Part shown: piece after piece, positions 4,101-29,500 of the stretch
Layout: the number at the start of each line of letters is the position of its first letter
Numbering within the stretch: position 1 is the first letter of the stretch
Assembly: GCA_002633005.1 (NCBI GenBank)
Contig: NMRA01000393.1
Coordinates: forward strand, 197,210 to 232,417
Source: Phoronis australis
Taxonomy: Eukaryota; Animalia; Phoronida
Direction of reading: 5' to 3'
DNA length: 35,208 bases
Program-made: the position numbers and the translations under genes
Notes under the pieces: model-generated
Database searches by the model: none
Told to the model about the DNA's origin: nothing
The model's input: the letters and a program-made list of their open reading frames with translations, nothing else

Positions 4101-7100
4101 CATTCAACTGTTTAATCAACCGTAGTCCTGCGCCAAAATGACCATGTTGAATGTTAACCAGTCTCAGATTCGTCTGCATGGACAGGATTATACATCGTCT
4201 GCTATGCCGGCCAACGCCAATCCACTATAACTGATTTATGTTTAGCAAGACGATATCAACGGAAGTTTCGTTATACGAACAAAATTGTTACGTCTAAAAA
4301 GTTCGTCATGTCGTGGATAATTGAATATTAACACTGTTTTTTTTTGTACTCAAGTGCTTCTACAACTGTCTCAACAGAGATCACACTATGCCAGACACTT
4401 CATTGCCAATTTGTCTTGCGAAGTATCCTTTACCCAGGTACATGATGCTCGGGTGAAGGTCTTGTCTATGATCGGTAAACTTGTATAATGCTCCAAACTG
4501 CACCCAATTACATCTAGTTTTTCAAATTTTGCTTGGGGAAGGTCTCCCAACCACCCCCCTCTCCCCGATGGGAGGATCTCACTTCATCCCATGCTCGCTT
4601 GTGGCACCAGGTTCTGCATCCACGTCGAGCATTCACCACCACGCTTCTTTTGAAACCCAGGTAATAGGGCATCCCACTTTTCATATTCGCATGCGGCAAC
4701 GCGCTTTGCACCCCGTTTTGGCCATTCACCACCACGCTCCTTTCAAAACTTAGGGGAAACCCTAAGGTGAATGTCTAACATGTTGGATTTTAAGGATAAA
4801 TTCCAGTATGATGAGCTAAGTACTCAGCTGTCTGAGGACATGATGAACTAAGTGCTTAGCATATTGATAACTAATTTCATCTCAATCAAAATACCTCAAA
4901 ATTTTTTGGTTGTTGAAAATTTCTGAGGTATTTTCATTGAATTTTGTTTGGAAGTGAAGATAAAATTAGTTTTCAGTCAGCACATTGCTGATGAAAATTA
5001 TTTGGTAAATGCACAGCTGATTACTTTGGGTATGAAGTTAAAATTAATTATTGCATGACCTGAGAAAATAAATCCCCCACTTGCTCAAGCGTGTGTACAA
5101 CAATTGCCCTACAAACATAGTTATCTGTTTGCCTGTCAGTGAGCGTTTTGCCTTGCTGCGTGCGGGTAACAATGACGAGTTCAGTTTCATTTGACACTTA
5201 AGGCATGGATCATTGGTCTGCCCAGAAATGTCAAGTGTAGCGTCACACGATGTCATATAGTACTGGAGGGGAAGGCTTACTGCACCTTTAAAAATGTCAC
5301 TTTGTAAAAATTAAAACATTTATTTTTGTATCATTATTTCTGTCTCAGGTTAATCCAAAAACACAGAATTACCTCAGCAGTGATATTTGTGAAAATTAAC
5401 CGATCTTTAGACCTCATATCATTGAACATGAGATATTTGCGTGTATTTGCAGGAAAAGAAGGGTGGTCGTGATTCTGACTGTGTCAGAGTTGTGGTGCGA
5501 TGTCGGCCAATGAATGAAAAGGAAGTGTCGTCTCAATGCAAGCAAGCTGTCAAGGTAACAAGGCTTCAAGTAACATTTTTCATTTTTGTCTCAAATATTT
5601 TGGAAGCAATGAAGTCCACAATTTGTTGTGACAATAATTACTAAAAAGCTGTTTGTTGAAATTTGATTAACTCATAGATTGGTAGATGCAACTATACTGT
5701 TATTTTCTATGCACCATATGCAGGTTGATTGGTAGATGCAACTGTAGGGTTATTTTCTATGCACCATATGCAGGTTGATTGGTAGATGCAACTGTAGGGT
5801 TATTTTCCATGCACCATATGCAGGTTGATTGGTAGATGCAACTGTAGGGTTATTTTCCATGCACCATATGCAGGTTGATTGGTAGATGCAACTGTAGGGT
5901 TATTTTCCATGCACCATATGCAGGTTGATTCTGTCAGAGGTACAGTGGGTGTGACTAACCATGCTGGTAGTGCTGGTGAACCCCCCAAGACATTCACCTT
6001 CGACACAGTGTTTGGACCTGACTGTAAACAGGTGGATGTGTACAATGAAGTGGCACGCCCCCTGGTGGAATCGGTGCTAGAGGGATACAATGGTATGAAG
6101 AACTGTGCTAGTATTCACCACAGAAAGAACTTGTTTTGTTTGTAATCGCTGTTGTAAATTGGTGGAATTGTGGGATATTGTTATTGGTATATTATGACAG
6201 TGGTGGTCAAATTTTAAGGATATACTTTGCATATTTTAATGATACTTTGCATATTTTTGTATAGTTTGTCCATCTTAGATTTTGCTGCAGTCTTTAATTT
6301 TTTCATAACCTAGTGCTCTGTGTGCACCTACAGAGATGTCTCTTCAATTTTGGCAAAAATAATTTCTGAACCATGGTTTTTATGTTTCTCAAGGATTTAC
6401 CCCATTGCTACAAATATTCAAAATGTTCCTTATTTAATGATAACTGCAAACCTTGGTAACAATGAACTTGCATTTTTGTTGATATCAGTTGAGAAATTTG
6501 ACCTTTGGAAAGGAAACTGCCCTTTTCTGCCATCATGTGTACTCAGTTGGAGAAACATAGAACACCAACATATGGGATAAAAAATTAGTTGGACTCAGTA
6601 TTATATGTATATATCACCTTAATAGTTGGACATAACCAGTAGTTTGTTTCTTGGTCTAATCTACTTTTTTGCTATAACAACAGGGACTATTTTTGCATAT
6701 GGTCAGACGGGCACAGGAAAGACTTTCACCATGGAAGGTGTTCGCACTGTCCCAGAGCTACGAGGCATCATTCCGAATTCGTTTGCACACATATTCGGCC
6801 ATATTGCTAAAGCTGAAGGAGACGCTCGGTATGTTATTTTTATAAAATGTAGCCATAATTGTGAGAAGTATTGCTCAGTTTCTGTTAAAAGTTTGCTAAA
6901 TTGTTGTGTAGTGGATCTTGTGCACTCGGTATATTGGTCACAAAACATTCTCAACCATGGAGTTTGAAGTATTTCTGGAAAATTTGTTTATTAAAATGGC
7001 TGTCAGAATATGGACTGACAACGTTTTTAGTTTTATTGTTTTGTTTTGTTTTGTTGTTCTGTTTGATTGACATGCCCCCTGACTTAAGTATAGTGTTGAT

Positions 7101-26556: not shown

Positions 26557-29500
26557 CTGAAGAAACAGAGAGATAGTTATGGAGTAGGGACCTTTAGACA
26601 GACTTGTGACATCTGAAGAAACAGAGATATAGTTATAGGGAGTAGGGACCTTTAGACAGACTTGTGACATCTAAAGAAACAGAGATAGTTATAGGGAGTA
26701 GCGACCTTTAGACAGACTTGTGACATGTGAAGAAACAGACTCAGATAGTTATAGGGAGTAGAGACCTTTAGACAGACTTGTGACATGTGAAGAAACAGAG
26801 ATATAGTTATAGGGAGTAGGGACCTTTAGACAGACTTGTGACATCTGAAGAAACAGAGAGATAGTTGTAGGGAGTAGGGACCTTTAGACAGACTTGTGAC
26901 ATCTGAAGAAACAGAGATATAGTTATAGGGAGTAGGGACCTTTAGACAGACTTGTGACATCTGAAGAAACAAAGAGATAGCTATTATACAACAACTTATC
27001 ATAAACATTGTTCGCTGCCTGATCTTTAACAACATCCATAACTACGCAACTATTTAGTGTAAGTGTAGATCTAATTGGTCAAGACAAGTCCTGGAAAAAT
27101 TACCAACAGCCTGTGAGTGACAACTTCAATGACAAGCTCATATACACATTGCCAGATACCAAGTCTATATTGTCCTTCTTCAAAGAGCAATATGACCAGA
27201 TAAAATGCAAGTAGACACTGGAAATCAACTTGCCACATACCTCGTTAGGGGTAACCTGGTGGCCACAGTTGTATTGTCATATTACCAAAGTTAGAAGTAG
27301 CCTGGTGGCCACAGTTGTAGTCATATTACCTAGTTAGAAGTAGCCTGGTGGCCACAGTTGTAGTCATATTACCTAGTTAGAAGTAGCCTGGTGGCCACAG
27401 TTGTAGTCATATTACCTAGTTAGAAGTAGCCTGGTGGCCACAGTTGTAGTCATATTACCTCGTTAGAAGTAGCCTGGTGGCCACCTTTATATTGCTATAC
27501 TATTGACTCATTGACTCACAGTTCATCTATTATTGAATCAGATGTAGAGACGTTCCCTAATCTGCAGCAAGCAAATAAATCTGGGAAACCTTGGCCATGT
27601 AAAGCACCTTGGCCATGTAAAGACCTTGGCCATGTAAAGACCTTGGCCATGTAAAGCACCTTGGCCATGTAAAGCACCTTGGCCATGTAAAGCACCTTGG
27701 CCATGTAAAGCACCTTGGCCATGTAAAGACCTTGGCCATGTAAAGACCTTGGCCATGTAAAGCACCTTGGCCATGTAAAGAACTAGGCCATGTAAAGCTT
27801 TTTAGAAGACAAAAGCACAAGCCTTTAGAAAAGAAACATTCAACAATTAAGAAATCAGAGATAAAGCTATTGTTTTTGCTGAAATGTTTTTCCTTAGTAC
27901 TAATAAAAGTAAAACAACAAGAAATATAATAATAATATTGCAAATTTCATATTTCTCCATTTTTGGTAGGCAACATCAATCAATACACAAAATACCTTGC
28001 TACACCTGTCATCATATACATATAGCTCAGTCTGGATAAATTCAGTGACTTTTTTCAGAGTTAAACATTGCTTAGAAATTAAGTAATAAGAGTTAGTCAT
28101 CAGTTTTATAAGTTATCGTTTTCATCATTGTATCCGACCACCTCATTGTATCTTGCCACATCATTCTATCTGACCACATCATTATACCTGACCACATAAT
28201 TCTACCTGACCACATCATTGTATATTACCACATTAATGTATATGACCACAGCACAAAATGTTTGGGTCTGGTGCATTTTAGGTTAAGATTAAAAAAAATG
28301 ATTAATTCTCCTTAAACTATTATTTTCTAAATAAATAAATCTGCATATTCAATGAAAAATTTCCCACAAGAAATCAAAGACGGAAACTTATTGAGCCATG
28401 CATAGCAGTACCAGTGCAGGGTATGTAATGCGATTATTGAGTCATGCATAGCAGTACCAGTGCAGGGTATGTAATGCGATTATTGAGCCATGCACAGCAG
28501 TACCAGTACAGGGTATGTAATATGATTATTGAGCCATGCATAGCAGTACCAGTGCAGGGTATGTAATATGATTATTGAGCCATGCAACTAAGCAGTACCA
28601 GTGCAGGGTATGTAATGTGATTAAAACTAGAATGAGTTATCACTTTTGGTACAATCCTCAAACGATCATGCTTAACGCAATATGAACCATGTAGTGATGT
28701 CAAAAATAACTTTCTTCAAATGTGTGTTTACTCCGCTTCTACAACACCATTAACACCTTCTTATGTTTTGTTTTGATTGAAGTAAAATATGAAAATATTA
28801 TCAAAATGCTATGACAGCAATACTGCTTTATTGGCTGACAAATAACGCAGTGTGACAAGCAACGTCTTGAGTCAGGCCTGAGGAATAAAGACCTGATGGT
28901 TATTCTCAGTCTGGTCTGACGTACCGTAAACCTTCAGGTAAACGCCCATGTTCACTGAACCGCCCATCCCCAACTTTAGGTGGATTTTCGATTTAACCGC
29001 CCACTGCTCGGTTAACCGCTCCTCTGCGATTTTTGAAGATTTCCAGTTCACACCCACATCTCAGTTAAGCGCCCATCCCCGACCCTTGAAGATTGGTGAT
29101 TATGCGCCCAATGCTTAGGAAATGCGCGATTACCCATTTTAAGACAAAAATCGATGATAACAAAGAATACAACGACAGCGTTGGAGACGTTGGTTTGGAG
29201 CTTTGGCAATGTGAATTATAATACAAGTAACAAATTATTGTCAAGGGTCATGGATTTGCTTCAAAATGTAATATCTTGAACGCTTTGTCACTTTATTTTC
29301 TTCCCATGTTCGCAAAACTAAGAATCCCGCTGGCTTCAATACCTACGATTTCAGCGATGCCGTCTGCCGCGCTAAGTTTCCGTCAGCAGTGCTCTAGATA
29401 AAACATATATTCGCAAAAATAAAGCCAGAGAAACGTGACAGTGGTCTTGCCAACACTCATAATTCGCTTTAGGTGGGAAGCTCGGATTTTGAAGAATTCC

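Follow-up and report, generated by a model that had tools for sequence, protein, structure and literature searches.

Six tandem arrays, each built of a unit that runs across a real exon-intron border, were found in a 35,208-nucleotide (nt) stretch of the Phoronis australis genome (GCA_002633005.1, contig NMRA01000393.1, forward-strand positions 197,210 to 232,417; the whole stretch is called the window below, and its first letter is position 1), which contains a KIF3A gene and the 3' part of a TRMT9B-like gene. At five of these arrays, RNA reads join the copy nearest the exon. Here, we describe the window as a real and dense cluster of minisatellites of a previously known class, the mirages of amphioxus. 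With a probability of roughly 0.6, we favor the explanation that these arrays were born of short local duplications, like the other minisatellites in the window, and persist as tolerated by-products.

Non-coding arrays were called with Tandem Repeats Finder (TRF; period of at least 15, score of at least 50), and each of the six units contains sequence from both sides of its junction (Table 1). This agrees with the original prediction, made from the letters of the window, which also rightly placed the arrays in both genes, on both strands, and at three acceptors and three donors. The six affected junctions are counted among 35 in the gene models (30 in KIF3A and 5 in TRMT9B). A TRF-independent search for local copies of the junction 20-mer ranked the same six as the top 6 of the 35, with the near copy on the intron side, and thus no further hidden junction arrays are expected at that sensitivity. 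The earlier figure of about 15 tandem arrays was right as to the six that span junctions, but our own total is 17 non-coding arrays; an entropy filter removed the exon 11 junction row, leaving an automatic count of 5 of 14–17, and that row was added back by hand to give 6 of 17.

The units draw on exon and intron in different proportions. Besides those dissected in Table 1, about 20 nt of the exon 10 unit, 10–11 nt of the exon 13 unit, and about 30 diverged nt of the TRMT9B unit are exonic, and in exon 11, the weakest of the six cases, about 5 purine-rich exon nt are clearly shared. At exon 3, the distal unit has diverged. Together, the arrays hold 34 decoy sites; GT or AG is kept in 32 of them (the AG is lost in two of the seven TRMT9B decoys and kept in five), and most score like the real site on a matrix built from the window's own splice sites. 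That decoys lead to stops or frameshifts, as had been noticed for those traced earlier, holds for all, with a premature stop in 34 of 34.

Two further observations concern the units themselves. Around the donor, the units of exon 11 and exon 13 (18047–18090 and 20431–20476) have about 20 letters in common, plus a G-rich tract, and this likeness is most simply read as convergence on the donor motif. In the exon 8 array, the distal unit (11003–11036, plus strand) has gained, downstream of its acceptor (score 5.7), a donor-like ATG/GTGAGA whose score of 7.8 is within the range of real donors; by these scores, it could serve as a 34-nt cassette that would stop the protein at amino acid 336.

Splice-site use was read from three RNA runs, about one fifth of each, with a joint reported at three or more reads. 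The exon-proximal copy is joined by 183 reads in total at exons 3, 10, 11, and 13 and at TRMT9B (Table 1), and at exon 8 the reading frame and homology point to the copy in the same position, in line with the expectation that the functional site is the exon-proximal terminal copy. No decoy joint is among the joints listed for the five arrays, beside the 183 canonical reads, although identical decoys could split reads and nonsense-mediated decay (NMD) could remove the transcripts. Assuming zero decoy reads, the 95% upper bounds on decoy use run from 4% (exon 13) to 24% (TRMT9B). The RNA joints keep the ancestral KIF3A frame uninterrupted, with no new intron and no moved exon boundary.

The history of an array can be followed at exon 8, where ten inner units are identical and carry two common variants that are missing from the real exon, and where the distal unit has diverged. 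The array consensus changes an Ile to Phe, a residue found at that position in 0 of 68 relatives, and the real exon keeps Ile; selection against exonic change is thereby supported. Two residues that are invariant in 68 of 68 relatives are altered in the distal unit, so that a collapse of the array in which the distal copy survives would be mostly damaging to the protein. These variants indicate that the inner units homogenise, that selection shields the exon copy, and that collapse to one copy is mostly blocked. Blocked collapse is a neutral reason for the long survival of the exon 8 array; for the donor arrays this is not clearly so.

Under the favored explanation, 35–70 bp would be duplicated by slippage, or by a switch of template, where a few bases of microhomology are available. 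From the structure of genes it follows that a duplication over a junction would leave one intact exon and an intronic spare copy, and that a duplication within an exon would be purged. The inner copies would then expand and homogenise, as the variant pattern suggests; the exon copy would remain unlike the array consensus, as at exon 8, and the exon-adjacent copy would be the spliced one, as at the five sites with RNA joints. A local excess of arrays at junctions would likely reflect the longer survival of arrays tied to a site that cannot be deleted, together with the choice of this window. The exon 3 (GATT) and exon 13 ((C)AGAG) arrays carry exact microhomology of 4 nt at their two ends, and the ends match in 6 of 7 nt at exon 10, which fits slippage or template switching; random 50-bp duplications have end microhomology of 4 nt or more in 3% of cases. 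The introns are repeat-prone in general, with the 17 non-coding arrays spanning about 15% of intron bases and 11 of them lacking a used junction, which we count in favor of tolerated by-products.

Whether junctions are enriched for arrays depends on the null model, and all the statistics come from one window that was chosen for its junction-array pattern. When one founding unit is allowed to fall randomly in introns or across a junction, 0.8 junction arrays are expected against the 6 of 17 observed (P = 7e-5), or 1.15 with a hand-drawn transposon mask (P = 5e-4). The automatic five give P values of 3e-4 to 3e-3, permissive TRF settings (5 of 28) 0.005–0.02, and removal of the largest array (5 of 16) 5e-4 to 3e-3. 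When whole arrays are placed so that they overlap exons by less than one unit, P is 0.002–0.03, and uniform placement gives 0.15–0.53. Counted per position, a near copy within 250 bp is present at 10% of non-transposon intron positions versus 6 of 35 junctions (17%; P = 0.15), and at 4% when terminal units only are considered (P = 0.003); at stricter identity thresholds, 4 or 2 of the 35 junctions qualify and both contrasts weaken. Overall, the position-based nulls range from P = 0.003 to 0.8. The enrichment that had been proposed is therefore significant under the founding-unit null and not under whole-array or per-position nulls. We take the founding-unit null to be the fairest, and by it there is a local excess at junctions, perhaps nine- to twelve-fold.

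For comparison, 11 KIF3A-like loci more than 65% identical and with a shared intron position were retained from 80 fetched from metagenomes. None of their 64 junctions has a junction-spanning array, a count that is biased low because short-read contigs break at arrays; three repeats that lie by junctions in these loci were found not to copy the splice site. In one of the loci, 8 of 11 introns are at the same positions as in the window KIF3A.

Several points weigh against the favored explanation. The junction rate under the founding-unit null, 9–12 times the intron rate, exceeds what anchoring to an undeletable site is shown to deliver. A barrier to collapse can be seen at exon 8 and perhaps at TRMT9B, but at no other array, and the donor arrays could collapse harmlessly. 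The non-junction arrays argue weakly for the same process, with exact end microhomology of at least 4 nt in one of the seven examined (5 nt) and of 0–3 nt in the others, some of them decayed. Finally, the RNA samples differ from the DNA source, with fixed exon differences (for example, at 17904 and 17910), so that the same arrays are not assured in the animals that gave the RNA.

One rival explanation is that there is no real enrichment and that a striking window was chosen from a minisatellite-rich genome. The per-position contrast (P = 0.15, with 4 or 2 of 35 under stricter thresholds) and uniform whole-array placement agree with this, and in a genome assumed to measure 500 Mb, 1–7 equally extreme windows would arise by chance at P values of 7e-5 to 5e-4. 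We nevertheless consider it improbable: the excess survives removal of the largest array, and nulls that permit arrays across exons or count array interiors overstate chance. Alternatively, duplications might be preferentially born at exon edges, either because exons are islands of homology between the haplotypes of a highly heterozygous animal, where repair templated by the homologue would stall and change template at the end of homology, or through R-loops and breaks coupled to splicing or transcription. The founding-unit excess favors such birth, as do array ages that span a single duplication to decayed repeats and a strong sense-strand G skew in the exon 11 (0.80) and exon 13 (0.57) arrays. 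In X1, DNA assembled separately and possibly from the same animal as the window, most contigs have about half the depth seen at one identical piece of 1.1 kb, which would fit split haplotypes, and the 0 of 64 in metagenome loci would fit a lineage-specific tendency. However, the skew is present in two of the six junction arrays only, the 0 of 64 is biased low, and a single selected window is at issue. Moreover, the non-junction arrays are not clustered by junctions (3 of 10 within 120 nt, P = 0.19), and splice-like motifs in them show no clear excess, with 3 of 40 tests at p < 0.05 and one more at 0.05, near chance. Birth at exon edges is thus unlikely in our judgment, and the junction-targeted mutational process raised in the original prediction is unsupported, given also that end microhomology occurs off junctions. 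Also unlikely, though not remote, is a genome-wide process in this lineage that duplicates junctions about ten times as often as other intron DNA, for example by template switching where the homology of two strongly differing haplotypes stops at an exon edge; if this were true, mirages would be general in highly heterozygous marine invertebrates, would be an as yet unmeasured contributor to the growth of introns and the turnover of splice sites, and would offer a natural setting in which to study how one splice site is picked among identical ones.

A regulatory role, with decoys diverting transcripts to NMD and copy number tuning expression, appears very improbable. Early stops from 34 of 34 decoys, most of which score as high as the real site, would suit it, and two pseudo-sites are used in human CBS and IFI6 (PMC1557585). 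Against it, stops of this kind are expected from random intron sequence, the AG is gone from two TRMT9B decoys, and the arrays decay like neutral DNA; the earlier proposal of tuning through NMD also finds no decoy joint listed beside the 183 canonical reads, though NMD would hide such RNA. That the arrays are assembly artefacts is scarcely credible. An N at 10007 beside another array marks assembly gaps at repeats, copy numbers are uncertain, as at exon 8 with its ten identical 62-bp units, and the DNA evidence covers one of the six arrays, that of exon 3. There, one X1 contig runs through the first decoy acceptor into the decoy continuation, stopping 15 nt beyond it, and a second contig has the real acceptor, which speaks against an artefact of the assembler at this site; in addition, the units include intron sequence and ordered, unit-specific variants.

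Table 1. Coordinates of the junction-spanning arrays, gene models, and arrays without a used junction in the window
Feature	Coordinates	Strand	Details	TRF call	RNA joint (reads)
Exon 3 acceptor array	5677..5930	+	50-bp unit (43 intron + 7 exon nt); 4 decoys (5724, 5774, 5824, 5874); real acceptor 5924 downstream	5677-5930 (50 bp x5.1, 98%)	5554 -> 5924 (17)
Exon 8 acceptor array	11003..11861	+	62-bp unit (9 intron + 53 exon nt); 13 decoys; real acceptor predicted at 11809	11005-11861 (62 x13.8, 98%)	
Exon 10 donor duplication	17357..17472	+	53-56 bp; real donor 17376; one decoy, 17429, downstream	17357-17472 (53-56 x2.1)	17376 -> 17820 (40)
Exon 11 donor array	17990..18260	+	Decayed, G-rich; units 56-68 bp; decoys 18056, 18124, 18191	18015-18199 (68 x2.7, 80%)	18000 -> 18669 (45)
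Exon 13 donor array	20358..20614	+	36/37-bp unit; real donor 20367; 6 decoys downstream	20358-20614 (36/37 x7.1)	20367 -> 21089 (70)
TRMT9B last-exon acceptor array	26533..26984	-	56-60 bp unit; 7 decoys; real acceptor 26556	26555-26984 (58 x7.4)	30933 -> 26556 (11)
KIF3A gene	1192..23119	+	16 coding exons, 708 amino acids; open frame on joining, homology, RNA joints		
KIF3A exons 1-6	1192-1197, 5453-5554, 5924-6092, 6684-6828, 8394-8584, 8813-8952	+			
KIF3A exons 7-11	10246-10443, 11809-11983, 16768-16884, 17217-17376, 17820-18000	+			
KIF3A exons 12-16	18669-18779, 20242-20367, 21089-21211, 21616-21755, 23075 to stop	+			
TRMT9B-like gene, 3' part	24653..31854	-	tblastn of relatives, RNA joints, open frame		
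TRMT9B exons in window	31854-31559, 30996-30933, 26556-24653	-	5' exons outside window		
Intronic array without used junction	10008-10186				
Intronic array without used junction	12748-13065				
Intronic array without used junction	18422-18564				
Intronic array without used junction	20910-20975				
Intronic array without used junction	27238-27484				
Intronic array without used junction	27588-27798				
Intronic array without used junction	28123-28250				
Intronic array without used junction	28388-28623				
Intronic array without used junction	34839-34935				
Intronic array without used junction	34943-35208				
Eleventh array without used junction	1601-1643				

The gene models rest on the evidence listed in Table 1. 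Exon 1 of KIF3A was located by an RNA joint from 1197 to 5453 (24 reads), and a candidate exon 1 at 3987, which breaks the frame, was rejected. At least 12 of the 15 KIF3A introns were seen as RNA joints, those between exons 3 and 4, 7 and 8, and 9 and 10 being absent among the joints listed. The protein is 74–80% identical to named lophotrochozoan KIF3A proteins (71% to that of a leech), with the top BLAST score to Lingula (80%), whose KIF3A isoforms differ by 3–7 amino acids. A quick tree of 41 KIF3A-like proteins, which contained no deuterostomes, grouped the window protein, with good support, with those of molluscs, annelids, nemerteans, and Lingula, and left arthropods outside; no amphioxus protein is among the 120 of 273 matches listed for exon 11. 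On this evidence, the protein is likely that of a lophotrochozoan. The exon chain of the second gene in the window is backed by two RNA joints, and its sole named match is an 'uncharacterized' protein with methyltransferase Pfam domains. The name TRMT9B comes from the original prediction and agrees with homology. The 3' ends of the two genes converge (23119–24000 and 24653), and RNA of opposite strands meets at about 23800–24400.

At the non-junction arrays within RNA-covered stretches, no RNA joints are among those listed. The idea that the 18-bp or 43-bp arrays (27238–27798) conceal a TRMT9B exon was rejected, as RNA passes straight from 30933 to 26556. For the 68-bp array (12748), a micro-exon was likewise rejected: exon 8 is joined directly to exon 9 in 63 reads, and no other joint is listed. 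On the sense strand, this 68/47-bp array (12748–13065) includes a site that resembles an acceptor (score 9.4, p = 0.02 uncorrected) and is skipped in RNA, and the array might be an orphan mirage whose micro-exon was lost or is rare. At 10007–10186, a single N adjoins a 19-bp array whose unit is a strong antisense donor motif (score 8.2, p = 0.01 uncorrected), and no antisense joint is among those listed there. The two neighboring arrays at 34839–35208 reach the end of the window, and a TRMT9B exon just past it could make them a seventh junction array.

Larger repeats are also present. KIF3A intron 8 holds a 2.3-kb element (13650–15940) with inverted ends of about 20 identical nt and with RNA reads on both strands from many diverged copies, likely a non-autonomous DNA transposon; a more diverged relative with similar ends lies in a TRMT9B intron (28920–30830). 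At 400–3230, 7080–7700, and 9250–9600, DNA contig depth is in the thousands, compared with 5–12 for single-copy sequence, marking high-copy repeats that flank KIF3A exon 1 and occupy introns 1, 4, and 6, with inverted copies at about 1300–1580 and 2020–2250.

A genome in which 6 of 35 junctions are affected lends itself to rate measurements and to telling a bias at birth from a bias in survival. With the acceptor arrays, the choice of splice site can be examined from the 3' side, with up to 13 equal upstream sites likely passed over, and junction arrays in general can mislead gene annotation and read mapping. Reports of mirages for lophotrochozoans, Phoronis, or brachiopods were not found in the open-access literature, nor was a genome-wide mirage count.

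The possible novelty of the structure does not stand, since it is already known as amphioxus mirages and from human genes (PMC3087553, PMC3902484, PMC1557585). Amphioxus mirages are described there for Adh3 and the globins BflGb6 and BflGb9 (PMC3087553) and for troponin C and PGBD5 (PMC3902484), with normal splicing, concerted evolution from which end units are excluded, and an origin called unclear (PMC3087553); length polymorphism and somatic instability are reported for Adh3 and BflGb6. The window has a head-to-tail unit that spans the border, most GT or AG kept, splicing at the terminal copy (five of six arrays), and homogenised inner units (exon 8). The likeness extends to units across both 5' and 3' exon-intron borders, several arrays per gene, unit lengths inside the reported 10–160 bp, and exclusion of end units from homogenisation; unlike them, the window is lophotrochozoan rather than cephalochordate and has 5 of 30 junctions affected in one gene, KIF3A. 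The arrays also resemble intron gain by tandem duplication, as outlined in the Rogers model and the potato RdRp case (PMC4974935, PMC2812944), in that a duplication over an intron-exon border supplies splice signals, but they differ in showing no new intron and no moved splice site.

In human genes, variable number tandem repeats (VNTRs) at junctions are reported for F7 intron 7 (37 bp), CBS intron 13, lamin B2, PDGF intron 4, and IFI6 (6-16) (PMC1557585). These are single donor arrays in scattered genes, to which the window adds acceptor arrays and a density of six within 21 kb; and whereas CBS and IFI6 use two pseudo-sites, none is seen to be used among the joints listed here. In both settings, the first unit crosses the donor, identical pseudo-donors follow, and the most upstream donor is used. 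For F7, use of the most upstream functional donor (PMC1557585) partly answers the question, raised in the original prediction, of how one site is chosen among identical ones, and the exon 13 array, with its 36/37-bp unit in seven copies, closely parallels this human case.

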